A stretch of 64,000 nucleotides of DNA from Candidatus Bathyarchaeota archaeon. GTDB taxonomy: Archaea; Thermoproteota; Bathyarchaeia; 40CM-2-53-6. Position numbers and translations under genes: made by a program. Numbering within the stretch: position 1 is the first letter of the stretch; every line of letters begins with the position of its first letter. The stretch covers positions 736,001 to 800,000 of the forward strand of contig CAVTBR010000001.1 in NCBI GenBank assembly GCA_963733055.1. Direction: 5' to 3'. Under the pieces are notes generated by a model. The model searched no databases. It had not been told where the DNA came from and saw nothing but the letters and a program-made list of their open reading frames with translations. Below are positions 1,646 to 50,956 of the stretch, piece after piece.

Positions 1646-2068
1646 TTGTTTGAGCGATTAACCAAGTGGGCGAGGACACGTTCCCCATGGGTTTACCACA
1701 TAAACGCCTCCTCATGCAACGGCTGCGACATAGAGCTGGTCGCGAGCCTTACACCTCGTTACGATATTGAAAGATTCGGAGCGATTCTAGCGCCGAGCCC
1801 GCGACACGCCGACGTTCTAATAGTAACAGGAACGGTTAACGCCCAAACAAAGGACCGGCTGAAGCGAGTCTATGATCAGGTGCCAGAACCGAAGCACGTC
1901 ATAGCTCTAGGTGCATGCGCGGTATCGGGCGGCGTGTTCAAGGGATGCTACAACGCCGGACAGGGCATCCAGGATGTCATACCTGTTGACATGTTCATCC
2001 CAGGCTGCCCACCGCGGCCTGAAGCCATCATGTACGGAGTCTTGAAACTGCTGGGGGAAGTAAAATGA
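1646..2068 (+). CDS. Group 4 [NiFe]-hydrogenase small subunit (NuoB/MbhJ-like)
   Basis: SCNGCDIE, SPRHAD, GACA and IPGCPPRP [4Fe-4S] motifs. Confidence 0.95.
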   Translation: MFERLTKWARTRSPWVYHINASSCNGCDIELVASLTPRYDIERFGAILAPSPRHADVLIVTGTVNAQTKDRLKRVYDQVPEPKHVIALGACAVSGGVFKGCYNAGQGIQDVIPVDMFIPGCPPRPEAIMYGVLKLLGEVK

Positions 2069-2547
2069 GCGAAAACTTGCTTGAGCAACTCCAAACCTAC
2101 GCATCTCAATCGAACAGCAAAGTCTCGGTCCCACGGAAAGGCGAAACTTTCATTGAAGTCAATCAAGATCACATTAAGGACTTCATCTCTCACCTGGTCA
2201 ACGACCTCAGAATATTCCACCTCCAAACAATAACAGGCCTAGATCTGGGCGAGAATATAGGAATCATCTATCACTTTTCGCAGGACAAGAACACGATCAA
2301 CGTTAAGAGCACCGTGCCGAAGGCTCAGTCAGCGGCCGCTTCAATCGTTGGCATTATTCCCGGCGCGATTTTGTATGAGATGGAAATTCACGACATGTTT
2401 GGGGTCACATTTACAGGAAACCCTTGGATGAACCAGAAACTCCTTTTACCAGACAACTGGCCCGACGACCTACCTCCTCCTCTTCTGAAAACTACGAAGC
2501 CAGCGGAGATCCGAAAACGATTACACTTGGAAGTCGAACAAAAATGA
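2065..2547 (+). CDS. NuoC/MbhK-like hydrogenase subunit
   Basis: TITGLD and YEMEIHDMFGVTFTGNP motifs; ATGA overlap with neighbours. Confidence 0.9.
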   Translation: MSENLLEQLQTYASQSNSKVSVPRKGETFIEVNQDHIKDFISHLVNDLRIFHLQTITGLDLGENIGIIYHFSQDKNTINVKSTVPKAQSAAASIVGIIPGAILYEMEIHDMFGVTFTGNPWMNQKLLLPDNWPDDLPPPLLKTTKPAEIRKRLHLEVEQK

Positions 2548-3812
2548 GCGATGAATCGAAGCGTAGGGAAGAGTCCGCAGGATTAATGGAGTTTTCAGTC
2601 GAGAACCTCGTTCCCTTCGGACCCATCCACCCAGCGCTGAAGGAACCTGAGTACTTCAAACTCATTCTCGAAGGGGAGAAGATCATCCAGGTCATTCCTA
2701 GAATCGGATACGTACACAGGGGCCTCGAGAAAGCCGCAGAATCACGCCCATGGGTGCAGAACATGTACATGTTCGAACGTACTTGCGGAATCTGCAGCTT
2801 CGTTCACAGCCTCTGCTATGGCCAAGCCGTGGAAGGCCTAACTATCTATGAAGTTCCTAGAAGAGCGAAGTACATTCGCCTCATCATAGCCGAACTGGAG
2901 AGAATTCATAGCCATCTGCTCTGGGTGGGGCTAATGGGGCATTGGGCAGGGTTCGAAACTCTGTTCATGTGGGTTTGGAACGATCGAGAAGTTATACTGG
3001 ACTTAGTAGAAGCCATTTCAGGAAACCGAGTCCACAAATCAATGAACGCGTTCTGCGGCGTAAGGCGTGACATGCCGGAGAACATGGAAGATCGAATCGT
3101 TGAACGTATGAAATTCATTACCGACCGAGCCCACTACTACCGAGAGATTATCGACACCGAAGAGACAATGCTAGCGCGGACTGAAAACGTAGGCAACAAG
3201 ATAAATCAGGAAACAGCTCAGAAACTCTGCGCCGTCGGCCCAATGGCAAGATACGTTGGGCTGCGACAAGACGTTCGACAAAACGACCCTTATGCAGCGT
3301 ACGACGAAGTTCCTTTCGACATCGTAACCCGCACCGAAGGCGACGTCCGTGCACTACTACGCCTCCGCCTAGACGAACTAATCGTTTCAGCGAACATGAT
3401 CAGTTACGCTGTGAAGCACCTTCCCGAGGGGCCGATTAGAGTCAAGATCGCACCCATCATCCCGGCGGGCGAACATTCATCCCACTGCGAAGCACCACGA
3501 GGCGAGATATTCTACTACGTGAAATCAACAGGTGGCCGAACCCCGGACCGTGTCAAGTCAAGACAACCAACCATGGCCAACATTCCAACGGCCCTTGAAC
3601 TCTTGAAGGGTCAGACACTTGCCGACCTGCCAATGGTCTTGACAGCAATCGACCCATGTTTTGGCTGCATGGACCGCATGTCATTCCTCGACACAGAATC
3701 GCACAAGCAGTGGACATGGTCAGGTGAACAACTTCGCCAGTATGGAATCAAACACTACTTCCCAAACCGATTCAACTCTCCAAACCCCTCAAAATTCAAG
3801 GAAGCCCACTAA
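2544..3812 (+). CDS. Group 4 [NiFe]-hydrogenase large subunit
   Basis: Intact Ni-binding motifs ERTCGIC and DPCFGCMDR, GYVHRGLEK, EAPRGE; C-terminal extension; start placed at ATG 2544 overlapping the NuoC-like stop. Confidence 0.95.
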   Translation: MSDESKRREESAGLMEFSVENLVPFGPIHPALKEPEYFKLILEGEKIIQVIPRIGYVHRGLEKAAESRPWVQNMYMFERTCGICSFVHSLCYGQAVEGLTIYEVPRRAKYIRLIIAELERIHSHLLWVGLMGHWAGFETLFMWVWNDREVILDLVEAISGNRVHKSMNAFCGVRRDMPENMEDRIVERMKFITDRAHYYREIIDTEETMLARTENVGNKINQETAQKLCAVGPMARYVGLRQDVRQNDPYAAYDEVPFDIVTRTEGDVRALLRLRLDELIVSANMISYAVKHLPEGPIRVKIAPIIPAGEHSSHCEAPRGEIFYYVKSTGGRTPDRVKSRQPTMANIPTALELLKGQTLADLPMVLTAIDPCFGCMDRMSFLDTESHKQWTWSGEQLRQYGIKHYFPNRFNSPNPSKFKEAH

Positions 3813-12028: not shown

Positions 12029-12196
12029 CTAGTTGCTAGCTATCTGCAATCGGCGTTCTTTCATCTCTACTGATGCAAGTGCATGAGTAACACAATTTAA
12101 TTCGCATGCTTCTGCTTCCTCGAATTCCTTGTAAACAAACCCGCAAAAACCACACTTGAACTGCATGTCCCATGCCCTATGCTGGTCGCCTAACAT
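12029..12196 (-). CDS. 55-aa zinc-finger-like protein, below the ORF-track cutoff
   Basis: MLGDQHRAWDMQFKCGFCGFVYKEFEEAEACELNCVTHALASVEMKERRLQIASN; CxxC...CxxxCxxH. Confidence 0.65.
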   Translation of the reverse strand: MLGDQHRAWDMQFKCGFCGFVYKEFEEAEACELNCVTHALASVEMKERRLQIASN

Positions 12197-12274: not shown

Positions 12275-12460
12275 TTCTACTCAGTAGAAAAAGTATAACG
12301 CCCCAGCACCTCGTGTCCGGCTGGCATACTTGACGGTTAGTAGGACCTCACTGGAAGTTCATTACGCTAATACCGGCGGTTTGAATCAAACCTCACTCTA
12401 CCAGGTAGAAATTAGGAACATTATACATTTCTTACTTTTTCTCCAGCCGCTGTTAAATAT
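12275..12460 (+). promoter_or_regulatory. Promoter/operator region of peptide gene copy 1
   Basis: TTCTAC-N3-GTAGAA at 12275, CTCTAC-N3-GTAGAA at 12396, GGTTTGA-A-TCAAACC at 12378 and TATA-like TTAAATA at 12453; 12404-12460 is homologous to 25724-25780. Confidence 0.55.
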
Positions 12461-12508
12461 TGTGACCCAACATAGACGCTTCCAGAAGATTTGTGGAGGT
12501 GTTTGAGG

Positions 12509-12589
12509 TTGGCTAAGAAACGCAAGGTTAAGATGAGTTTAGGTAAGGAGCACGACAAGAACGTTAGACAAGAGGAAATGGTAGCATAA
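12509..12589 (+). CDS. 26-aa peptide MAKKRKVKMSLGKEHDKNVRQEEMVA, copy 1
   Basis: GGAGGTG SD 7 nt before TTG; identical peptide at 25845-25925 with only start-codon and synonymous changes; hairpin and T-rich tract downstream. Confidence 0.75.
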   Translation: MAKKRKVKMSLGKEHDKNVRQEEMVA

Positions 12590-12591
12590 GC
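12524..12591 (+). repeat. 68-nt exact repeat, also at 25860-25927
   Basis: Direct comparison of the two segments. Confidence 0.95.
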
Positions 12592-12691
12592 TGCCACGGG
12601 AGGCGGTTGATTCCGCCCCTGCTCTCGTTTCACTCATTAATTCTTATTTTGTTAGAATCTTTTCGGAGTTTCCAGCGGCGCTAGAGTGGGT

Positions 12692-25475: not shown

Positions 25476-25712
25476 CTACGTTGACTGTTTTTTCGCTTTG
25501 CTCTGGACAATGTAGTAGTTTTCGTCCACGTCAATCTCCAAGTCTGGCACGAAGGCTAAGATGAATTCGATTAATTCATCCATGCTTCGCTTGCGTCTCT
25601 CTTTCAACTGGAGAAAACCCTGTAGACTCACAAGCCGCTCGTACATATCGGAGCTGATCTTGATGCTTCTGCTTAACCGCCTCTTCTTGCCGGGTTCAAA
25701 TGTTCTCGACAC
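25476..25712 (-). CDS. Ribbon-helix-helix/CopG-like DNA-binding protein (antitoxin-like); start uncertain
   Basis: RSIKISSDMYERL...SMDELIEFIL pattern; GTG 25712 preferred because TTG 25766 lies within the conserved promoter block. Confidence 0.6.
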   Translation of the reverse strand: MSRTFEPGKKRRLSRSIKISSDMYERLVSLQGFLQLKERRKRSMDELIEFILAFVPDLEIDVDENYYIVQSKAKKQST

Positions 25713-25723
25713 TAAGTATCTCC

Positions 25724-25780
25724 GGTAGAAATGTAGAACATTCGGGCTTTTTACCTTTTTCTCCAAGCCGCGTTATATAC
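25724..25780 (+). promoter_or_regulatory. Promoter block of peptide gene copy 2
   Basis: GGTAGAAAT, GAACATT, CTTTTTCTCCA and TTATATA align without gaps to 12404-12460. Confidence 0.6.
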
Positions 25781-25844
25781 AAGATTCATGCCCGCTCCCA
25801 GTAACCTGGTAATGCAACACCAGAAAACAGGGAGGTGAGTTGAG

Positions 25845-25925
25845 ATGGCGAAGAAACGTAAGGTTAAGATGAGTTTAGGTAAGGAGCACGACAAGAACGT
25901 TAGACAAGAGGAAATGGTAGCATAA
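25845..25925 (+). CDS. 26-aa peptide MAKKRKVKMSLGKEHDKNVRQEEMVA, copy 2
   Basis: GGAGGTG SD at 25831, ATG at 25845; same peptide as 12509-12589. Confidence 0.78.
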   Translation: MAKKRKVKMSLGKEHDKNVRQEEMVA

Positions 25926-25998
25926 GCCCACTAGTTGGGCTCCGTTTCCGGATCAAGCCCCCGTTCTAACTTTTTCTGTCTATCTTTTCGTTTTTTCG
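25926..25998 (+). terminator. Hairpin plus oligo-T tracts after peptide gene copy 2
   Basis: GCCCA-CTAGT-TGGGC stem followed by several T4-T6 runs. Confidence 0.5.
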
Positions 25999-26063
25999 AT
26001 GCGAACTGCTTTTCTTCTGTCGGTTTGAGTACAGATAGAGTCTTAAGCAAACTACCGCATAAA

Positions 26064-26861
26064 ATGGCGAACACGCGTAGTGTTCATCTTATGTTGGAAT
26101 TAATCCCGGGCCATATATCGCAAGCGATACTACTCATTGTCGTGTTGATTGCGATTTACGAAGTATCAAGGGTCGCGTCGAAAAGGAAGCTGAAAACGCG
26201 GGGCATCCCTGGACTGGAGAGGATTGATGAATGGATTAAGGAAGCAGCAAAACTCAAGCGAAGCGTATTCTTCACGCCCGGAACGGGCAGTGTCACCTCA
26301 CCGGACACGCTCGCGGCACTCGCCCTTCTCCAATATGTTGCAAAACACTGTGTTGAACATGACGCCCGGATCTTAGTTGCAAACTCCGATCCCCAAGTGC
26401 AACAGGTTACGGAGGATATCGTGAAAAGTGCATACGCTAAAGCGGGCAGAGAAAAAGAATTCAGCACGGACATGGTGCGGTACGTATCCACTCGGCAGTT
26501 CGCATATGCAGCAGGTGTTATGGGAATTCTACGCCGCGAAAAACCCGCCGTCAACTTTTTCGTTGGCGACTTTCAGGCGGAAGCGTTGCAACTCGCCGAG
26601 ACTGGAAGAAGCGAAGCGCTTTACCAGTTCGGGGGCACAACAAACACCGACCAACTACCATTCTTCATGACAACTTGCGATCAAACCCTAATCGGAGAGG
26701 AGCTATACACAGCACAAGGATACCTTTCCTCGGATCCTGAAGCCGTTTCCCGCCTCGTCGGACCCGACGCAGGAAAGATCCTCGCGATTCTCCTCATTCT
26801 AGCTGGCGCGCTTCTCATAACTTTCGGTAACTCGATCCTGATCGCCTTGATGGAGTTCTGA
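26064..26861 (+). CDS. Uncharacterised membrane protein (resembles DUF6754 family), gene 1 of a four-gene operon
   Basis: N- and C-terminal TM segments around a soluble domain; RGIPGL, QFAYAAGV.G and QLPFF..TCD..LIGEELY motifs; start reset from 25935. Confidence 0.8.
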   Translation: MANTRSVHLMLELIPGHISQAILLIVVLIAIYEVSRVASKRKLKTRGIPGLERIDEWIKEAAKLKRSVFFTPGTGSVTSPDTLAALALLQYVAKHCVEHDARILVANSDPQVQQVTEDIVKSAYAKAGREKEFSTDMVRYVSTRQFAYAAGVMGILRREKPAVNFFVGDFQAEALQLAETGRSEALYQFGGTTNTDQLPFFMTTCDQTLIGEELYTAQGYLSSDPEAVSRLVGPDAGKILAILLILAGALLITFGNSILIALMEF

Positions 26862-26868
26862 GGCACCA

Positions 26869-27561
26869 ATGAGCTCAAGCAAGAAGAAGATGACTCGAGG
26901 AGAATTTGGCCTTCAGCTGATTATCTTCGGCCTGGGCTTCTTCTATGCAATAGTCTACTATGTTGCACTGCCAGGAATAGTCGATTTGCAGGCTGTTTCT
27001 GACCAGTTATTGGCCTACTTGACCGCGATGCTCACGGCCACGTTCGCGATCGGAATCATCAACCTCACTCGCGTCCATGTGAACAACATCAAAAGAAAGC
27101 GGGCGACTTGGAGGTACAGCGTGATTCTCCTCGTATCCCTTTACGCAATGGCGATCTTCAGTATGATCGCCTCACCTTACGCGCTGGACCCACAAGCGGC
27201 TGTAATACCAACAAATGTCATTGCCTTCTCAACCCCCATCTGGGAATTCCTGTACTACAAAATTCTTGTGAACATAAACTCAAGCATCTTTTCTCTTCTC
27301 GCCTTCTTCATCGCTTCAGCAGCTTACCGAGCTTTCAAAGCACGATCCTTAGAGTCGACGATTCTGCTAGCCGCAGGCTTACTAGTCGTGCTGGGACAGG
27401 CGCCAATAGCAGATTTGGCGTGGCCAGGATTCAGCGTGATTCGCGACTGGATATTGGCTTTTCCCAACACGGCGGGGCAAAGAGGCATCCTCATCGGCGC
27501 TGCACTAGGAATTCTTGCGTTCAGTGTTCGCAGACTAATCCGGTACCCTTGGGGAGACTAA
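26869..27561 (+). CDS. Uncharacterised multi-TM protein, operon gene 2
   Basis: FSLLAFFIASAAYRAFKARS and PNTAGQRGILIG; about 6 TM segments. Confidence 0.8.
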   Translation: MSSSKKKMTRGEFGLQLIIFGLGFFYAIVYYVALPGIVDLQAVSDQLLAYLTAMLTATFAIGIINLTRVHVNNIKRKRATWRYSVILLVSLYAMAIFSMIASPYALDPQAAVIPTNVIAFSTPIWEFLYYKILVNINSSIFSLLAFFIASAAYRAFKARSLESTILLAAGLLVVLGQAPIADLAWPGFSVIRDWILAFPNTAGQRGILIGAALGILAFSVRRLIRYPWGD

Positions 27562-27565
27562 CAGG

Positions 27566-28414
27566 ATGGCTGCGACAAGTCTCAGATCGGACCCCAGGCT
27601 AGTGTACCTAATCCTGTTGCTAGTTATCACAGTGCCTATTCTTTCACACGCGGTGATTGCTGTTCCAATCGGCCCAACTACGCGTGCATTGTATGATTTC
27701 ATTCAGAACCTGCCGCCCAACAGCCTTGTAATAGAGAGCTTCGATTACGCTACAAGCGTCGTCCCAGAATTGCACCCCCAAGCCATAGTTGTCACACAAC
27801 ATATCTTCATGAGGCCGCTTAAGGTTCTCTTCGTAGCGCTAGATAATAATGGCCCGACACTGGCTGATGCAGTCCTCGACGCGATCAATAAGGGCAATAA
27901 GAGCTACGGTGTCGACTACGCAAACCTTGGATATATTCCCAACACTGCTACGCTAATCGGCATGCCCTCAAACATAGCTCAATTCCTACCACTTGACACG
28001 CACGGTAACCCTACCGCCAGCCTTCCGATCATCAAAGAATTTCCCGCCGCCAAGGACGCGGCGTTGGTAATCACCTTCGACGATGACAGCAGCGCCCTCT
28101 ATTCCTATCTTCAATATTGGCAAGGGCGTTCCAACATCGCGGTTGCGGTTGGAGCTACGGCCACGATAGCCCCAGGCTTCGAGCCGTTCTACAACTCAGG
28201 CCAGCTTGTGGGCATTCTGATCAGCATACGCGGGGCCGCAGAATATGAGTTGCTACTGAGCCAGCAGTATAATTGCTGTTTGGGGATCAGCGGAGCCTCC
28301 TCCGCTATGGTTGCGCTATCTGCGTCCCATTTGCTGATAGTCGCGATGGTCGTATTCGGCAATGTGGCCTATTTCATTGGCCGGCGAAATTCAACTTCGA
28401 AGAGGGCGAAATGA
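27566..28414 (+). CDS. Uncharacterised membrane-anchored protein, operon gene 3
   Basis: Terminal TM segments with a soluble domain; YGVDYANLGY and SGQLVG....GAAEYE. Confidence 0.8.
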   Translation: MAATSLRSDPRLVYLILLLVITVPILSHAVIAVPIGPTTRALYDFIQNLPPNSLVIESFDYATSVVPELHPQAIVVTQHIFMRPLKVLFVALDNNGPTLADAVLDAINKGNKSYGVDYANLGYIPNTATLIGMPSNIAQFLPLDTHGNPTASLPIIKEFPAAKDAALVITFDDDSSALYSYLQYWQGRSNIAVAVGATATIAPGFEPFYNSGQLVGILISIRGAAEYELLLSQQYNCCLGISGASSAMVALSASHLLIVAMVVFGNVAYFIGRRNSTSKRAK

Positions 28415-28417
28415 GAC

Positions 28418-29194
28418 ATGAATCCAATTGATCTGATTGGAGTTGTGGTTGGTGTATTCATTACCCTGATGGTGCTTAGTTTTCTATACAAGGAAAACCC
28501 ATTCTTCCGCTTAACCGAATACTCCTTTATTGGCCTCGCCGCTGGCTACGCCCTCGCCGCTTCCCTACGCCTTTTCGTAAACCAAGCCCTTAACCCAATT
28601 TTCATAGGTGGCGACCTAACATTCGTAGTACCACTGATCCTAGGCTCGCTGTTCTACGCCCAGTTCACAAAGAAGTACTCGTCCCTGTACAGGCTGCCGT
28701 TGAGTTTAGCGATTGGTTACGGTCTAGGGGTCACTATCTGGAGCATATTTGCAACATTTTTCGTGAAACAGGTGACTGCAACAATAATTCCCCTGTATAC
28801 CGGGAACATTCTCACTACCTTCGACAATGTTGTCTTGGTTGCAGGAACTATACTGACCCTCTCCTACTTCATCCTACTCAGAGAGCAGAAAGGAGTCTGG
28901 GGAGGAGTTACAAAAATTGGCAAATATTTGATACTTGCTACTCTTGGCGCTGTCTTCGGAAGCACGGTCTTAGGACGGATGGCAATAATAATTCAGAGAG
29001 TACAATTCCTTGTTGGCGATGCCGCTTTCCCTTGGCGCGCATTAGGAATGGGAACCGCCACTGAAGGCGCCTATGCTCCGATTGGGGTAGTGGCATTTCT
29101 GGCTATTTTCGGTTACTACATGTACAGGGAGAAAAACAAGAGATCAAGTGCTAGTGCTGAAATTAAGCCGAAGGCATCTAAGGCTCAGACTTAG
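28418..29194 (+). CDS. Uncharacterised multi-TM protein, operon gene 4
   Basis: SFLYKENPFFRLTE, LSYF and GAVFGSTVLGR. Confidence 0.8.
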   Translation: MNPIDLIGVVVGVFITLMVLSFLYKENPFFRLTEYSFIGLAAGYALAASLRLFVNQALNPIFIGGDLTFVVPLILGSLFYAQFTKKYSSLYRLPLSLAIGYGLGVTIWSIFATFFVKQVTATIIPLYTGNILTTFDNVVLVAGTILTLSYFILLREQKGVWGGVTKIGKYLILATLGAVFGSTVLGRMAIIIQRVQFLVGDAAFPWRALGMGTATEGAYAPIGVVAFLAIFGYYMYREKNKRSSASAEIKPKASKAQT

Positions 29195-30393: not shown

Positions 30394-31935
30394 ATGGAGC
30401 AAATCCGACGACTAGTTCAGGAACTAGCATTGGCAGGATACCAACTAGACCGATCGGCATACGATTATCTCAAAACCATGGAAGAACCGGAGGCATCAAG
30501 ATTCGCAAAAAACGTCATCCTTTCAATCGGCGACAACACCAACACTTCTCACATATTATCACGACAAGAACTACTCGAGATCTCCACACATCCTCTCTTG
30601 GAGCCCCCGCAGGTCCAAACTTCCGTAGCGCGTACCATCCCGGCGAAGCAAATCTCATCGCGATTAGAAGTTCTCAGAGATCCATCCAAGGAGATCGGCA
30701 CTGGGGGCACCATAGATGACTTTTCTCACTATTTCAGAGATAGATTTCAGAAACTCAACCGGACTTTCCGCGAGCGACCAGACTCAAGAGACGCAACAAG
30801 CTTAGCAGTTGCCCTCGGCCAAGAGCAGAACAAGAAGGTAAAGTTCACCGCGATGGTCATGGAGAAGCGAGAAAGACAGCAAAAACTGTTCTTGCAGCTA
30901 GACGATTTGGAAGATACGGCGACGGTTTTGATTTCGCCGGAGGAAAGAGCAGCATATGAGACAGCCCAAAAGATTCCCCTGGATCAAGTAATATGCGTAG
31001 GCGGGGTCCGGGCGAAGGGAGACCTGTTCGTAGCGAAAGAAATTCTACTCCCTGACATTCCAGATCACAAACCACACTTAGCTGAAGAAGACGTGTGGGC
31101 AATCCTGCTCTCCGACCTTCACGTGGGAAGCAAGAAATTCTTGAGCCGAGAGCTAAGCAGAGTTTTCGACTGGCTAAACCTGAAGATCGGAGACCCGAAC
31201 CAACGGGATATCGCCGAACGGACAAAGTATCTGGTAATCTGCGGCGACATTGTCGACGGCATTGGAATTTATCCGCGGCAGGAACATGAATTGGCAATCG
31301 TTGACCTGTATCAGCAGTACCAGGAGGCGGCCAAATATGTTGGCAGGATACCTGACTATATTGAAACCGTCGTGATTCCTGGGAACCACGACCCCGTCAG
31401 ACAGGCCCTTCCTCAACCGCCCATACCAAGGAATTTTGGGGAACCCCTGTATGAATCACGTGAATTAGTCTCTCTCGGAAACCCAGCCGAGGTTTCCTTT
31501 CACGGCGTCAGGTTCCTTCTACACCACGGCAGAAGCCTAGACGATGTGATCTCAAGTGCTCCAAATGTGGACTTCACTCAACCAGAAAAGGCAATGAGGC
31601 TCCAACTCCAGTGTAGGCATTTAGCGTCAGAGTACGGGAACAGGAGCTCCATTTCTCCTGAGAAGGTTGATCATTTAGTGATTGAGAAAGTTCCGGACGT
31701 TTTCCAATCCGGCCACATACACGTAGTTAGGTACGAGAACTACCGCGGCACTCAGATAATCAACTCTGGAGCTTGGCAAGCACAGACTGACTACCAGAAA
31801 AGAGTCGGCTTGGTTCCAACCCCAGGAATATTGACCGCGTTAAACCTGCACACCATGCAGGTTCGCCTGATAAATTTCATCGAACCCGACTCTAGCATCC
31901 CACAGGGATTGGCCCAACAGATCCCAGCGTACTAA
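30394..31935 (+). CDS. polB: DNA polymerase D small (exonuclease) subunit DP1
   Basis: OB fold plus SDLHVGS, GDIVDG, PGNHD, HGRS and GHIH phosphoesterase motifs. Confidence 0.95.
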   Translation: MEQIRRLVQELALAGYQLDRSAYDYLKTMEEPEASRFAKNVILSIGDNTNTSHILSRQELLEISTHPLLEPPQVQTSVARTIPAKQISSRLEVLRDPSKEIGTGGTIDDFSHYFRDRFQKLNRTFRERPDSRDATSLAVALGQEQNKKVKFTAMVMEKRERQQKLFLQLDDLEDTATVLISPEERAAYETAQKIPLDQVICVGGVRAKGDLFVAKEILLPDIPDHKPHLAEEDVWAILLSDLHVGSKKFLSRELSRVFDWLNLKIGDPNQRDIAERTKYLVICGDIVDGIGIYPRQEHELAIVDLYQQYQEAAKYVGRIPDYIETVVIPGNHDPVRQALPQPPIPRNFGEPLYESRELVSLGNPAEVSFHGVRFLLHHGRSLDDVISSAPNVDFTQPEKAMRLQLQCRHLASEYGNRSSISPEKVDHLVIEKVPDVFQSGHIHVVRYENYRGTQIINSGAWQAQTDYQKRVGLVPTPGILTALNLHTMQVRLINFIEPDSSIPQGLAQQIPAY

Positions 31936-42678: not shown

Positions 42679-43308
42679 TCAAGTCACGTGCAAGAGTGAT
42701 CCTAGGTTCTTGGCAATCAGGCCAGCTACGCGTATGGGTTCTGGTAGGCGAGAGATGAGGGCCGATGATGCGATGACTCTCTTAGCGTATGCTGGTGAAC
42801 TTCCCTTTACTTCGTAGTATAACTTGGGTTCATTCAGAAGTGGTTTGAATGAATACAAGGGGCCAGCGTTCCTCACGATGCGCCACCGTCGCTCCCAATC
42901 ATCGAAATGCCCCCTCAACGCTTTCCGCACGGATACGTTGTTCGGCCTTTCTCCAATGACTGCGATAACGGGTTTACCTGTCCCGTGGGATAATCGATCT
43001 ATGTCGATGAGATTGAAGCCACCGAAGGAAATCCCGCTCAGCATAACAGCATCATACGTCATATTCCTGAGTAAGGCTCTGAGTACAGAATTAGCGTCAG
43101 CTCCATCGACCCCTATTCTGCCAAGGCTGACTCTGGAAATTACGAAGCCATGAAGTAGAACTGCCACTATGACTGCGTATCCGCCGATCCCTATTCTGAG
43201 CGGAAGAGGTCCGTCATCTACCCCTACGATTCTAAAACTACGCTGCCTGATGCTTCTGGAGAGACTTCGGGACGTATCCGAAGAGCCTGCCCGCAATATT
43301 GTCCTCAA
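42679..43308 (-). CDS. DUF99/UPF0215 family protein (EndoV-like fold); start uncertain
   Basis: GVDDG, VDGADA, GISFGGFNLID and PEPIRVA. Confidence 0.85.
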   Translation of the reverse strand: MRTILRAGSSDTSRSLSRSIRQRSFRIVGVDDGPLPLRIGIGGYAVIVAVLLHGFVISRVSLGRIGVDGADANSVLRALLRNMTYDAVMLSGISFGGFNLIDIDRLSHGTGKPVIAVIGERPNNVSVRKALRGHFDDWERRWRIVRNAGPLYSFKPLLNEPKLYYEVKGSSPAYAKRVIASSALISRLPEPIRVAGLIAKNLGSLLHVT

Positions 43309-44467
43309 CGTAAGTATCTGAGATAACTCGAGGAGATACTCCGATTCTTATTTTCTTGGTTCTCCCATACCTTCCGAAACTCACCACTCTAGCGTTCAGT
43401 ATTCCCATGACGTCCAGTTCGTTGATTAGGCCACTGACTCTACGCTGTGTCAATGGCTCCAAATCGCTGACTCCGCATAGCTCGTGGTACACCTCGTATA
43501 CATCGCCGGTTATGGCTCCGCTAGAGAGATGATTGCTCAGCAAGTACGCTCCTACGAGTAGGATTTTGGAGTGAGCAGGAAGCGACTTCAAGACTTCAGA
43601 AACGCGGTCGTGTTCTATCTTCTGTTGCGCTTGGCGTACGTGCTGTTCGATCACTCGCCCGGAATCTTCGCGCTCCGCGAGCTCACCTGCCACACGAAGT
43701 AGGTCGAGGGCCCGCCTCGCATCACCGTGTTCGCCGGCGGCCAGGGCAGCGCAGAGTCTCAGGGCGTTTTCATCGAGGGCGCCTTTAAGGAAAGCCAATC
43801 GCGTCCTGTCGTATAGAATATCAAAGAGCTCATCTGCGAGATAGGGCCGAAAAACTACTTCCTCTTCACTGAGCGAGCTCAGGACGCGTGGATCCAGGAA
43901 TTCCTTGAAATGAAGATCGTTTGAGATTCCTACGAGGCTAATCCAAGAAGAGTTAAGCGTTTCATTGATCCTCGTGAGTTCATACAGCAGTGAATCATCT
44001 GCGTTATGTTTTATCAGAGCATCGATCTCGTCCAGAGTGACGAGTAGGGCTGTCCTGTCGGCGCCTATTCCATTTGAGAATCGATCCAAAAGCTCCCCGA
44101 CGGCAATTCCCGTGAAAGGTACCTCCACTCCAACGCTTCTACAGATCTCCGCCAAGACCCGGTAGTTCGTCCCAGCTAGACGGCAATTGATGTAAGCCAT
44201 CTTTACCGGAGCCCCGATCTCGGCAGCTTTCTTCTGCAGTTTGTCGAGCACAAATTTCGTAACTATGGTCTTGCCCGTGCCTGTTTTCCCGTAAACGAAC
44301 ACATTCGATATCTTCGACTGATGAAGAGCGGGAGCAAGAATCCCTGCCAAGCGCTGAATATGCTCATCTCTGTGCGGTAAGTGAGTTGGCATGTAGTCAT
44401 GCCGTAGAACGTCGCGCTCTGCGAATATTTTGGCAGTTGACAAATATTTGTCGAATAAGGTTTCCAT
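43238..44467 (-). CDS. cdc6: Orc1/Cdc6 replication initiator
   Basis: YGKTGTGKT, LDEID, GDAR.ALDLLR and wHTH ending GRYGRT. Confidence 0.97.
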   Translation of the reverse strand: METLFDKYLSTAKIFAERDVLRHDYMPTHLPHRDEHIQRLAGILAPALHQSKISNVFVYGKTGTGKTIVTKFVLDKLQKKAAEIGAPVKMAYINCRLAGTNYRVLAEICRSVGVEVPFTGIAVGELLDRFSNGIGADRTALLVTLDEIDALIKHNADDSLLYELTRINETLNSSWISLVGISNDLHFKEFLDPRVLSSLSEEEVVFRPYLADELFDILYDRTRLAFLKGALDENALRLCAALAAGEHGDARRALDLLRVAGELAEREDSGRVIEQHVRQAQQKIEHDRVSEVLKSLPAHSKILLVGAYLLSNHLSSGAITGDVYEVYHELCGVSDLEPLTQRRVSGLINELDVMGILNARVVSFGRYGRTKKIRIGVSPRVISDTYVEDNIAGRLFGYVPKSLQKHQAA

Positions 44468-47542: not shown

Positions 47543-50500
47543 TTGGACGCAACAGCTCTAAGTCGTCACGACCTATATTTTCAAGGTCTGAAGAATCAGG
47601 TCGACCAGATCTATGATCTGGCTAGACAGGCAAGGGCGAAGGGATTGGATCCATCACGGGATCCAGAGTCTGTGGTCACCCAGGATGTTGCGGAACGAGT
47701 CGAGAAGGCTGTAGGTCCCCCTAATGTAGCTTCAAGAATCCGCGAACTTTCGCTTCTGATGCAACGCGAACTTGTAGCGCTCAAGATAGCAGAAGAGATC
47801 TCGCTTTCAAAGTATGGAGTGGATGGCGAGCGCGCAGCAGAACAGGCGGTTCGAACTGCATCGGCCATTCTAGACGAAGGCGTTACTGCAGCGCCGATTG
47901 AGGGGATCTCAAGCGTCAGGATAAGAACAAATCAGGATGGATCCAAGTATCTGGCTGTTTACTTTGCAGGTCCCATTCGGTCGGCTGGGGGCACCGATAT
48001 GGCATTGATCCTTGTCATAGCTGATTATGTGAGACACCAGCTGGGGTTGGGCCGATACAAAGCTACGGAACTTGAGGCGAAAAGGTTCGTAGAAGAACTG
48101 CGTTTGTATGAGAGAGAGGTGGCCCGATTTCAGTTTAAGGTTTCAGATGAAGAGCTGTTCAACGCGGTCATGCGACTGCCAGTCGAAGTCAACGGGGTTG
48201 AAACGGATCCCGTCGAGGTTTCAGCGTACAGAAACGTTCCACGGGTGGACACGAACCGGGTGAGAGGCGGGGCACTGAGGGTTGTTCACGATGGGCTGAT
48301 TGGTAGAAGCCACAAGGTCCTGAAGATAATCGACAGCTTAGGTATAGAGGGATGGAGTTGGCTGAAGGAAATTAAGCCTCCCGTGGCTGAGGCGGAAGAG
48401 GCGCGTGAGTTCATGTTCATGGAGGATGTTCTGGCGGGACGGCCAATCTTCTCCTTTCCACAGTTCACGGGAGGCTTTAGGCTGAGATATGGAAGAGCGA
48501 GAAATACCGGCTTGGCCGCAATTGGCCTTCATCCGTCTACAATGATTGTTCTAGGCAAGTTCATCGCCGTTGGAACACAGCTCAGGTTAGAGAAGCCTGG
48601 CAAGGCAGGCATCGCGGCGACCGTTGATTCAATCGAACCCCCCATAGTTCGATTGAAGGATGGTTCCGTTGTGAGGCTATCAGACGCAAAGCGAACGGAA
48701 GAGCTCCTCGATTCGGTGGACGAGATTCTGTTCTTAGGGGACATACTGATAGGGTTCGGAGAATTTCTCGAGAACAATCGCCCCCTCCTCCCGTCAGGTT
48801 TTGTTGAGGAGTGGTGGAGTCAGCTAATGGAACTTGAAGCTACGAAGCACTCTGGTATACGCGGGTTCGCGGATCACATAAGTGTTGATGAATCTAGAAT
48901 TCTCGCCTATCTGAATGACTCAAGTGGAGAATATCCTACCGCTGAGGAAGCGATTCGCATCGCAAAACGATCAAACGTCCCTCTACATCCCAAATACACA
49001 TGTTTCTGGGAGAACATCGCCCCACAAGACTTTGACTACTTACGCTCAAAACTAATCGATCGCAACCAAACAACCCTATCCCCTAATCGAATATCGACTA
49101 AGAATGACACAATGACCAAGGCTATACTAGAGAACCTCTGCGTCCCCCACAGGGTTGAGCAAGATCTGCTAATAGTGGAAGAGGATGCGACGGTCTTGCA
49201 CGAATGCCTTGGGTTGGCTTCTCAGGGGGGGGCAGTGGAGGGGAAGGATGTGTTTGAGAAACTCTTTCACGCTTCGGGGATGCGAGTGATGAGAAAGGCG
49301 CCAGTCTATGTTGGCGCGCGAATGGGTCGGCCGGAAAAGGCGGCGAGGCGCGAAATGCGGCCTATGGTTCATTGTTTGTTTCCAATTGGGCTAGCCGGCG
49401 GATCTAGGAGGAATATTGTTGAGACTGTGGCAGAACACACCATAATCTCAGTTGATTTGGCGTACCGAAAATGCCAGAATTGCGGTAACGTCACTCACTT
49501 TGGCAAATGCGAGAAATGTGGCACTGATACAGTTGGCGCGTTTGCCTGCCAAAGGTGCGGTATCGACACCCCCGATAAAGTCTGCCCCTCATGCAAAGGC
49601 AAGGCCGAGGCGTTTACCCGAAGGAATGTACCCATACGTGACTTATTCAATGCGGCGCAAAGAAGACTCTCTCTCACCGTCACCCCCGAGAGCGTAAAAG
49701 GCGTGCGCGGGCTGACCAATCAGACGAAGACGCCGGAGCCTCTTGAGAAAGGACTTCTGAGAGCGAAGTATGACGTGTCCGTCTTCAAAGATGGAACCGT
49801 GCGATTCGATGCGACGAATGCACCGCTTACACACTTCAAACCTGTTGAGATCGGCGTTGGAGTCGACAAACTAATCGGGTTGGGGTACGAAGTCGACGTA
49901 GCGGGCAATCCACTTACATCGAATCAGTGTTGCAGCCTCAGAGTACACGACATCATCGTGCCGGAAACATGTGGAGACTACTTCGTCAGAGTCGCAAAAT
50001 TCATCGATGACCTCCTCCAACGCCTGTACGGCTTGCCACCATTCTACAATGCGAAGAACAAAGAGGACTTAGTTGGTCAATTGGTTATCGGCCTCTCTCC
50101 ACACACCTCAGTGGGTGTCATTGGACGTATTATCGGCTTTACAAAAGCCAGCGTCACCCTAGCACACCCATTCTGGCACGCCGCTAAGCGTAGGGATTGC
50201 GATGGTGACGAGGACTCCGTCAGCCTTGCTTTAGACATCCTTCTGAATTTCTCGAAACTGTTTCTTCCCTCAAGAATTGGGGGAATAATGGATGCCCCAA
50301 TTCTGTTAACGATCGGAATCAAACCACGGGAGGTTGCCCGCCAGGCTTTCAACATCGAATCGGTTAACCGTCTACCCTTACAGTTCTTCGATGCAACGCA
50401 AAAACGCTCTGACCCCAAATCCCAAGCCGCCATCATTGAAACAGTCCAAAACCGGCTTGGTTCGCAGGCAGTGTTGGAGTCCCTAGGTTTCACTCAAAGT

Positions 50501-50956
50501 ACTGATGATGTAGACGCGGGAAACTTGGAGAGCGTTTACAAGAAACTGGGGTCGATGATTGAAAAGGTGGGCCTGCAACTGAAATTGGCCGAGTCGATCA
50601 AAGCAGTGGAAGCAGGAGAGGTCGCGAAGAGAGTGTTATCGACTCATTTCATGCGAGACCTTACTGGAAACCTGAAGGCCTTCGCCGGCCAAAGGTTCCG
50701 GTGCACGAAATGCAATTCGAAATTCCGGCGTCTACCATTGAAAGGAGCTTGTCCAAGATGCGGGGGCAAGCTCTCACTAACCGTTTACAAGGGAGGTGTA
50801 GAAAAATACTTGACCGTAGCCCAGGATTTGGTCAAGCGATACGATTTGGGTCAATACCACGAACAGCGATTGTTACTTCTCCGTGAAGAGATCAACTCCC
50901 TGTTTAACGAACATGAGGAGAAAAAGAAACAGCCTACACTAGCGCAATTCGTTTGA
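47543..50956 (+). CDS. polC: DNA polymerase D large subunit DP2, no intein
   Basis: AGPIRSAGGT, GGFRLRYGR, RMGRPEK, AKRRDCDGDED and zinc fingers. Confidence 0.97.
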   Translation: MDATALSRHDLYFQGLKNQVDQIYDLARQARAKGLDPSRDPESVVTQDVAERVEKAVGPPNVASRIRELSLLMQRELVALKIAEEISLSKYGVDGERAAEQAVRTASAILDEGVTAAPIEGISSVRIRTNQDGSKYLAVYFAGPIRSAGGTDMALILVIADYVRHQLGLGRYKATELEAKRFVEELRLYEREVARFQFKVSDEELFNAVMRLPVEVNGVETDPVEVSAYRNVPRVDTNRVRGGALRVVHDGLIGRSHKVLKIIDSLGIEGWSWLKEIKPPVAEAEEAREFMFMEDVLAGRPIFSFPQFTGGFRLRYGRARNTGLAAIGLHPSTMIVLGKFIAVGTQLRLEKPGKAGIAATVDSIEPPIVRLKDGSVVRLSDAKRTEELLDSVDEILFLGDILIGFGEFLENNRPLLPSGFVEEWWSQLMELEATKHSGIRGFADHISVDESRILAYLNDSSGEYPTAEEAIRIAKRSNVPLHPKYTCFWENIAPQDFDYLRSKLIDRNQTTLSPNRISTKNDTMTKAILENLCVPHRVEQDLLIVEEDATVLHECLGLASQGGAVEGKDVFEKLFHASGMRVMRKAPVYVGARMGRPEKAARREMRPMVHCLFPIGLAGGSRRNIVETVAEHTIISVDLAYRKCQNCGNVTHFGKCEKCGTDTVGAFACQRCGIDTPDKVCPSCKGKAEAFTRRNVPIRDLFNAAQRRLSLTVTPESVKGVRGLTNQTKTPEPLEKGLLRAKYDVSVFKDGTVRFDATNAPLTHFKPVEIGVGVDKLIGLGYEVDVAGNPLTSNQCCSLRVHDIIVPETCGDYFVRVAKFIDDLLQRLYGLPPFYNAKNKEDLVGQLVIGLSPHTSVGVIGRIIGFTKASVTLAHPFWHAAKRRDCDGDEDSVSLALDILLNFSKLFLPSRIGGIMDAPILLTIGIKPREVARQAFNIESVNRLPLQFFDATQKRSDPKSQAAIIETVQNRLGSQAVLESLGFTQSTDDVDAGNLESVYKKLGSMIEKVGLQLKLAESIKAVEAGEVAKRVLSTHFMRDLTGNLKAFAGQRFRCTKCNSKFRRLPLKGACPRCGGKLSLTVYKGGVEKYLTVAQDLVKRYDLGQYHEQRLLLLREEINSLFNEHEEKKKQPTLAQFV

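Follow-up and report, generated by a model that had tools for sequence, protein, structure and literature searches.

Two copies of a 26-codon gene in an archaeal chromosome

The window analysed here is a stretch of 64,000 nucleotides (nt) from a Candidatus Bathyarchaeota archaeon (assembly GCA_963733055.1, contig CAVTBR010000001.1, positions 736,001 to 800,000), and it carries two copies of a gene of only 26 codons. These are called copy A and copy B, or WA and WB where they are compared with loci of other genomes, which bear L-numbers. Bathyarchaeia are abundant, largely uncultured archaea of sediment and peat. The window is archaeal chromosome, with genes for the large and small subunits of DNA polymerase D (PolD) and for Cdc6/Orc1, a purine biosynthesis operon, a complex-I-like/Mrp module and CofC/CofD; no transfer RNA (tRNA) gene and no Rfam family at gathering score was found in it.

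An initial annotation, made from the sequence of the window, had described an identical peptide encoded at two loci, and both coordinates and translations could be reproduced exactly: the two copies (Table 1) specify the same 26 residues, MAKKRKVKMSLGKEHDKNVRQEEMVA. Their coding sequences (CDS) differ, as had been stated, in exactly three places (TTG/ATG at the start codon, GCT/GCG and CGC/CGT), and 68 nt at the 3' side are free of mismatches. The other described features were also recovered in both copies, i.e. the Shine-Dalgarno (SD) sequence GGAGGTG 7 nt upstream of the start codon, a TATA-like box, and a hairpin and T-rich tract 3' of the stop codon. What had to be revised is the statement that the flanks are otherwise diverged, since a 56-nt block up to and including the TATA box is conserved. 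In a repeat search no direct repeat of the window was longer than this pair (97 nt, 92%, spacing 13336), and searches with peptide and CDS profiles revealed no third copy within the window. The start codon of copy B is fixed by an in-frame TGA (25836-25838) three codons 5' of the ATG.

Table 1. Features of the two peptide genes in the window
Feature	Position	Strand	Remarks
Copy A dyad CTCTACCAGGTAGA	12396-12409	+	Putative regulator site, 57 nt upstream of TATA box
Copy A conserved 56-nt upstream block	12398-12453	+	nhmmer profile; CTCC box at 12441-12444
Copy A TATA box TTAAATA	12453-12459	+	Predicted transcription start near 12483-12484, 5' untranslated region (UTR) ~26 nt
Copy A Shine-Dalgarno GGAGGTG	12495-12501	+	7-nt spacer to TTG; kept in 16/16 copies
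Copy A CDS	12509-12589	+	TTG start, 26 codons + TAA
Copy A putative gene-conversion tract (copy B type)	12524-12591	+	68 nt identical to 25860-25927
Copy A hairpin 1	12579-12596	+	Codons 24-26 pair with first 3'UTR bases; stop codon in loop
Copy A hairpin 2 (GGGAGGCGG ... CCGCCCC)	12597-12621	+	GC-rich, after stop codon
Copy A T-rich tract	12622-12653	+	Likely termination signal
Copy B conserved upstream block	25718-25773	+	Degenerate dyad 25718-25729; CTCC box 25761-25764
Copy B TATA box TTATATA	25773-25779	+	At -72 from start codon
Copy B 5'UTR hairpin CUGGU/ACCAG	25806-25823	+	Read from sequence; inside 15-nt insertion
Copy B Shine-Dalgarno GGAGGTG	25831-25837	+	7-nt spacer to ATG; kept in 16/16 copies
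Copy B CDS	25845-25925	+	ATG start, 26 codons + TAA
Copy B 3' stem complex	25910-25949	+	GGAAAUGG (codons 22-25) pairs with CCGUUUCC
Copy B T-rich tract	25964-25997	+	After stop codon

A multigene family in Bathyarchaeia

A scan of the GTDB species genomes with one degenerate DNA pattern returned 15 loci, 14 of which are real copies of the gene, seven in each of two Bathyarchaeia metagenome-assembled genomes (MAGs). The remaining locus (L012, Thermoactinomyces) was dropped as a chance match, the rest of the peptide being absent from it. The pattern required G12, E14, D16, K17, N18, [IVM]19, Q21, E22 and E23 exactly, so that more divergent members were missed and these residues are necessarily invariant in the 14 loci. 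Together with WA and WB these loci make up the set of 16 copies to which the counts below refer. The earlier term 'duplicated' is too modest for this family, as seven copies were detected in each of the two related genomes. The peptide genes are a lineage-specific (Bathyarchaeia) multigene family of self-contained mini-genes, with a unit of about 230-250 nt and at least seven copies per genome.

Relatives are present in protein databases under misleading forms. The natural TTG-to-stop open reading frame (ORF) of the window, of 32 amino acids (aa), was compared with 1.84 billion representative proteins, and six were found at E <= 0.001. Five of these end in the same 24-26 residues, preceded by unrelated N-terminal extensions that are gene-caller artefacts. 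A word-indexed search with a 59-aa artefact form added eight proteins, all ending in the same peptide and all unnamed, and a cluster look-up of the database relatives gave 'hypothetical protein' or no name throughout. The sixth match was a NACHT-LRV repeat protein (P0006, E 6.8e-6). The peptide has the length of one LRV/HEAT-like unit (PF01816, a 26-position model), but kinship with this repeat was rejected, as only the eight residues HDKNVRQE align to P0006, hhalign gave a probability of 4.6% and the Pfam LRV model stayed silent to E 10. We treat this word match, the best of 1.84 billion proteins, as chance. The peptides had no match in Pfam or NCBIfam at E up to 10, none in PADLOC or PHROGs, no usable match in the ESM Atlas, and none by tblastn in phage and plasmid collections at E up to 1. 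A literature search with four peptide strings also found none, nor anything related on small proteins of Bathyarchaeia.

The reading frame is strictly maintained. All 16 copies have the 26 codons followed by a stop codon, together with a start codon (9 ATG, 6 TTG, 1 GTG) and GGAGGTG; only frame +0 is open in all of them, and no reverse frame is open in more than 9 of the 16. The numbers of variable sites at codon positions 1, 2 and 3 are 10, 9 and 18 (of 25 each), and 4, 4 and 16 when the two most divergent copies (L009 and L015) are left out, while the pooled proportions of nonsynonymous and synonymous differences are 0.088 (pN) and 0.464 (pS), a ratio of 0.19. This pattern indicates purifying selection on the ORF at the level of the protein. 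Within the transcribed part, conservation extends from the SD sequence and start codon to two bases past the stop codon. Three marks of a small protein gene were found, namely an open frame of constant length, purifying selection, and SD sequence and start codon at proper spacing, and translation into a 26-residue cytosolic peptide is very probable. The view of the initial annotation that this is a selected and monocistronic, self-contained microprotein gene is upheld by the maintained frame and translation signals, by the distribution of variable sites and the low pN/pS, and by the convergent orientation of the downstream gene in 12 of the 16 copies.

The 56-nt upstream block appears to be a private promoter module. 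Its nhmmer profile matches all 16 peptide genes (E 7e-8 to 7e-16) and nothing else in the window and the 15 loci. In order, the block contains a dyad TTCYAC-N3-GTRGAA, a partly palindromic GG-ATAATTA-CC stretch, a CTCC box that is invariant or nearly so across the copies, and the TATA box TTAWATA. In 14 copies the dyad was found, 55-58 nt upstream of the TATA box, and each of the four Y/R combinations is represented; because the two halves vary independently, it fits better with a protein-binding site than with an RNA stem.

Promoter and transcription start were assigned from consensus geometry. In archaeal promoters transcription is expected to begin about 30 nt from the TATA box, and at about this distance from the first T of the box a partly conserved TTC|TAG is present. 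Transcription should start there, with a predicted 5'UTR of about 26 nt, or about 42 nt in WB, L004 and L008. Measured from the start codon, 13 of the 16 copies have the first T of the TATA box at -54 to -58, and in WB, L008 and, according to the alignment, L004 it is found at -72; these three copies alone have in common a 15-nt insertion with a potential CUGGU/ACCAG hairpin. GGAGGTG is the perfect complement of the 3' end of archaeal 16S ribosomal RNA (rRNA), and in the 16 copies it is separated from the start codon by 7-8 nt. The heptamer occurs ten times in the window, but only at the two peptide genes does a 26-codon ORF begin 7 nt after it. A role of the upstream block in RNA, as an anti-SD element, is unsupported, because the TATA geometry places the block upstream of the predicted transcription start; RNAalifold gave only a 5-bp CUCC:GGAG helix with no compensatory pairs.

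The 3' ends of the genes can be folded into structures that bury the stop codon. The counts given here refer to single-sequence minimum-energy folds. In 11 of the 16 folds, codons 24-26 (22-25 in WB and L004) form pairs with bases of the 3'UTR that are specific to the copy, leaving the stop codon in the loop, and the pairing partners and registers differ from copy to copy. In copy B the stem complex encloses a hairpin of the GCCCAC/GUGGGC type as well as the stop codon, and L004 is built alike. The 80-nt 3' region of copy A folds with z = -4.0, none of 200 shuffles being as stable. A GC-rich hairpin, often GGCGG-N6-CCGCC, is present within about 35 nt of the stop codon in 14 of the 16 copies (L006 and L008 are without it), and in most copies it is followed by a T-rich tract; oligo-T tracts terminate transcription in archaea. 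In several folds the purine-rich ORF segment ...ACAAGAGGAA... pairs with the U-rich tail.

The copies are dispersed among unrelated housekeeping genes, and no partner gene is common to all 16 loci. The four copies with a co-directional downstream gene are WB, L004 and L008, which form one positional orthologue group, and L007. A leader peptide or upstream-ORF attenuator was rejected, because in 12 of the 16 copies the downstream neighbour is convergent, so that no co-directional regulated gene follows directly. Three orthologous positions could be recognised, i.e. WB = L004 = L008 (CysRS, 96-aa ORF, peptide gene, DUF6754), WA = L005 (GyrI-like to polysaccharide deacetylase) and L006 = L014 (beta-carbonic anhydrase, GH127-like). 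Since these positions are conserved between genomes, the paralogues predate species splits and are neither mobile nor products of misassembly. A mobile repeat resembling miniature inverted-repeat transposable elements was rejected on the same three groups, and no inverted repeats were reported in the window.

In contrast to these conserved positions, the coding parts of the copies do not group by position. Upstream flanks group by position (90% for WA-L005 and 93% for WB-L004, against 82% for WA-WB), whereas the CDS of WA differs from that of WB at only 3 sites and from that of its positional orthologue L005 at 10; WB and L004 differ at 6. The 5' end of WA is of the TTG type (TTG GCT AAG AAA CGC), as in L005, but from codon 6 to the stop codon WA has the codons of WB and L004 (K6 AAG, V7 GTT, L11 TTA, G12 GGT, V19 GTT, A26 GCA) and not those of L005. 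Residues S10 and K13 are specific to the window and common to WA and WB. This pattern, with a 5' end like that of the positional orthologue and 68 nt at the 3' side like those of copy B, indicates that copy A is a chimera into which about 61-68 nt were copied from a copy B-type donor by gene conversion, a process at which the initial annotation had hinted. Similarly, the paralogues L006 and L008 of one genome have a single CDS difference, versus 6 to their positional orthologues. By this comparison, the coding parts of the copies are intermittently homogenised by short-tract gene conversion. Concerted evolution is known from rRNA operons and histone gene arrays, and as in these the dispersed paralogues are near-identical within a genome while positional orthologues differ more. 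The difference is that the unit here is a 26-codon gene, with conversion tracts of about 60-70 nt that end at the ORF borders. We regard the existence of the family and its mode of evolution as solid.

Possible role of the peptide

The peptide is hydrophilic, with eight K/R and four D/E residues and no hydrophobic stretch, as read from the sequence. In its polybasic N-terminal half, hydrophobic residues alternate with the basic ones (KVKMKL, within the segment AKKRKVKMKL); a Gly comes next. The C-terminal half is polar/acidic, with E14, D16, K17, N18, Q21, E22, E23 and V25 invariant, partly by construction of the scan. We propose that the copies form one co-regulated regulon through the shared promoter block and a dyad-binding factor, the number of copies and the optimal translation signals serving dosage, and consider this fairly probable. 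An abundant, dosage-driven and co-regulated supply is suggested because there are seven or more copies, a private promoter block and an optimal SD sequence. In this model the putative dyad-binding factor would drive all copies and provide a large amount of peptide on demand; the AKKRKVKMKL segment would bind a polyanion, and the C-terminal half, with its invariant polar residues, would provide specificity or fold back onto the basic one. Binding to an abundant polyanion, with RNA or the ribosome as the most likely target and DNA as the next, is a tentative suggestion and, taken by itself, rather unlikely. The explanation as a whole, a family module encoding a translated, co-regulated, polyanion-binding peptide, is the best we can offer and falls a little short of being probable.

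Several observations weigh against this proposal. The net charge of the peptide is only about +4 and its C-terminal half is acidic, whereas very small ribosomal proteins are uniformly basic. Seven of the 16 copies start with TTG or GTG, which is at odds with maximal expression. None of the 16 copies is located in a ribosomal-protein or chromatin gene cluster, and no chain of the PDB, ribosomes included, was matched by sequence or profile at E up to 10. Detection was limited to three related genomes and a handful of metagenome contigs, a small range for a core component, but one obtained with a strict scan pattern. An AlphaFold2 model (32-aa ORF, 20 aligned sequences) is a featureless single helix and uninformative (mean pLDDT 71.3, pTM 0.25). 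Furthermore, translation is deduced from comparative evidence, and the promoters from consensus geometry rather than from a mapped transcription start. Finally, several synonymous sites are invariant in spite of the lack of a corresponding codon bias in the genome, so that part of the constraint appears to act at the nucleotide level and a role as RNA is possible.

A more far-reaching version of the proposal is that the peptide is a stoichiometric, very abundant and hitherto unseen component of the cell in one Bathyarchaeia clade, such as a ribosome micro-subunit, a hibernation or accessory factor or a chromatin peptide, with genes that occupy seven or more dispersed sites under a private promoter and are homogenised like those of histones and rRNA, and with the stop-codon hairpin and the pairing of purine segment and U-tail coupling translation to mRNA stability. 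We put this forward as a speculation that is more likely wrong than right by a wide margin. Very small lineage-specific ribosomal proteins of about 25-33 residues do exist, e.g. Thx of Thermus, eL41/eS32, and bS22 of mycobacteria. The peptide resembles them in size, in its basic N-terminal part, in strong translation signals and in lineage restriction; it differs by the acidic C-terminal half and modest net charge, by its multiple copies outside ribosomal gene clusters, and by the lack of any Pfam, NCBIfam or PDB match.

Alternatively, the peptide could modulate one specific protein or enzyme complex without binding nucleic acid, its invariant polar residues forming a protein interface. The invariant positions are indeed mostly polar (E14, D16, K17, N18, Q21, E22, E23), suggesting specific recognition beyond electrostatics, even if their invariance in the 14 loci is partly due to the scan pattern. 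Archaeal small proteins whose role has been described act on proteins, for instance a small protein of Methanosarcina mazei that is reported to inhibit ammonium transport (PMC10714827). However, no conserved neighbour over the 16 loci names a partner, and seven or more copies under one shared promoter would be unusual for the regulator of a single enzyme. This alternative is unlikely, but it is the main rival of the proposal.

The transcript could also be primarily, or additionally, a regulatory RNA (a dual-function small RNA), which would account for both the 68 nt without mismatch and the synonymous sites that do not vary. The codons K8 AAG, D16 GAC, K17 AAG, N18 AAC, Q21 CAA and E23 GAA are the same in all 16 copies and E22 GAG in 15, while two-fold codons of the window are used at about 45-60% each. 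The corresponding third positions, which the scan pattern left free, belong to codons 8, 16-18 and 21-23 (12530-12532, 12554-12562 and 12569-12577 in copy A, and their equivalents in copy B). Rare codons are kept as well: TTA at L11 in 10 of the 16 copies (8% in the window), GTA at V25 in 13 of 16 (19%), and also GGT. Other positions (K4, K6, R5, T13, V19, R20 and A26) do vary synonymously. In addition, the pairing of ACAAGAGGAA with the U-rich tail and of codons 24-26 with the 3'UTR, described above, would fit with a function in RNA. On the other hand, most substitutions affect third positions, the few amino-acid changes being conservative, and conservation spans the region from SD sequence and start codon to just past the stop codon. 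The CDS folds no better than its shuffles (z = +1.27; 183 of 200 shuffles at least as stable) and the peptide genes have no Rfam match at gathering score or at E up to 10, so that neither of the two marks of a structured non-coding RNA, an Rfam match and a stable conserved core fold, was found. Gene conversion by itself can yield identical tracts. The additional RNA-level constraint at which the initial annotation had hinted is suggested by the invariant synonymous sites, to which gene conversion, pairing with the 3' tail and an RNA function could each contribute. A regulatory RNA as the main or second product is improbable in our judgement.

Bacterial type I toxins, which are membrane helices, are likewise encoded by multi-copy chromosomal genes, e.g. 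hok/sok, ldr/rdl and ibs/sib, and a stress-induced growth-arrest or toxin-like peptide of this kind has been considered. The copies resemble such genes in being stand-alone tiny ORFs at several intergenic places, between convergent genes, and in having a structured mRNA whose 3' end pairs with the coding region. Unlike the bacterial toxins, however, the peptide is archaeal and hydrophilic, without a membrane segment. No antisense RNA gene is evident, the alignments containing no conserved opposite-strand element within the predicted transcript and the upstream block preceding its predicted start; there is no conserved reverse-strand ORF and no PADLOC match. This makes a toxin very unlikely.

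A precursor of an exported or modified peptide, i.e. a signal or a ribosomally synthesised and post-translationally modified peptide (RiPP) with a conserved N-terminal leader and a variable core, is still more improbable. Sibling small ORFs in L010 and L011, which keep the basic N-terminus and a -VA end while their middle differs, would be in line with it, as would radical SAM genes within 3 kb in L011. Against this, 15 of the 16 loci have no adjacent maturase, protease or transporter gene, the peptide lacks Cys, a Ser/Thr-rich core and any features of a signal or double-glycine leader, and its middle is the most conserved part in the main family. Finally, an artefact has a negligible chance: a chance ORF is excluded because the peptide ORF is found again at 14 other loci and in 13 database proteins, and a misassembled duplication, which had been named as a possible objection, is ruled out by the unique flanks of the copies, each with a positional orthologue in independently assembled MAGs.

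Those defining features of type I toxins, RiPP precursors, leader peptides, ribosomal protein families, LRV repeats, mobile repeats and Rfam RNAs that were tested are lacking in each case. Closest in kind to the peptide family are archaeal small proteins from small ORFs, such as those of Methanosarcina mazei that act on ammonium transport, mentioned above, and the zinc-finger micro-proteins of Haloferax volcanii (PMC10716476). Like these, the peptide genes are very short ORFs, predicted to be independently transcribed, that are overlooked by gene callers. The peptide has no sequence relation to those proteins and no Cys motifs. It is set apart from the described examples by its seven or more near-identical copies, dispersed over the genome, by the rigidly spaced promoter module dedicated to them, by a 3' structure that buries the stop codon, and by concerted evolution through gene conversion.

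The family illustrates how the small proteome of Bathyarchaeia escapes gene callers, since it is public only in the form of mis-started 'hypothetical' ORFs. A peptide encoded by seven or more actively homogenised and apparently co-regulated copies is likely to be made in quantity and likely to matter to the cell. The gene set also provides a clean example of short-tract gene conversion in an archaeon, and, with its well-defined operator and promoter, a candidate for the regulon of a putative transcription factor. As the peptide can be synthesised, it offers a concrete handle on a possible ribosome-, RNA- or chromatin-associated factor.

Neighbouring genes and sibling reading frames

Beside copy B lies a 96-aa ORF (25476-25766, minus strand) without a Pfam or NCBIfam match, which is kept at the same length beside the orthologous peptide copies in L004 (3148-3438) and L008 (2599-2889). 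Its 5' end overlaps the upstream block of copy B; an alternative start or a shared divergent promoter is possible. On the other side, copy B is followed by a co-directional DUF6754 gene (25935-26861, plus strand; E 2e-71), as are L004 and L008. The longest ORF of this gene begins 10 nt past the stop codon of the peptide gene, and because the T-rich tract lies inside that extension its real start is probably the ATG near 26064. Three more ORFs without a Pfam match follow the DUF6754 gene (26869-29194). Upstream of copy A, a 55-aa ORF (12029-12196, minus strand) contains a CxxC...CxxxC motif and has a weak, sub-threshold match to DUF7128 (E 0.065); a 70-aa ORF (3281-3493) occupies the corresponding place in L005.

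The most divergent copy, L009, starts with GTG and encodes the peptide VGLKQKIKMKLGLEHDKNVKQEEQVA. It is located about 60 nt downstream of a tRNA-Arg(CCG) gene (2720-2797), which overlaps an ORF of the phage integrase family (1803-2822, minus strand); this overlap may mark the border of an integrated element. In L002 a convergent tRNA-Val(TAC) gene (3249-3336, minus strand) is found about 200 nt downstream of the peptide copy.

The sibling small ORFs are arranged in tandem in L010 (3237-3561, plus strand) and L011 (3231-3608, plus strand) and are divergent from the main peptide gene. They have the basic N-terminus in common, some of them also the -VA end, and differ in the middle. In one sibling pair, the 32 aa MVKKRMGKRRKVKMTLQGGPPQAVPATDELVA of L010 correspond to 22 aa in L011, with an in-frame 27-nt indel and three other differences that are all synonymous. 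The second pair consists of 29 and 20 aa (MAKKRKSKMKLDARW...), and a third sibling of 27 aa is RRKRKIKAVRQQDPTPPPGSQPEQVA. One of the sibling ORFs of L011 carries the same CTCC...TTAAATA promoter half. These ORFs suggest a wider, diversified superfamily.

Within the window, the genes for Cdc6/Orc1 (43238-44467, minus strand) and both PolD subunits (30394-31935 and 47543-50956, plus strand) lie within 20 kb of each other, and because of this proximity a replication origin may be located near the Cdc6/Orc1-PolD region.

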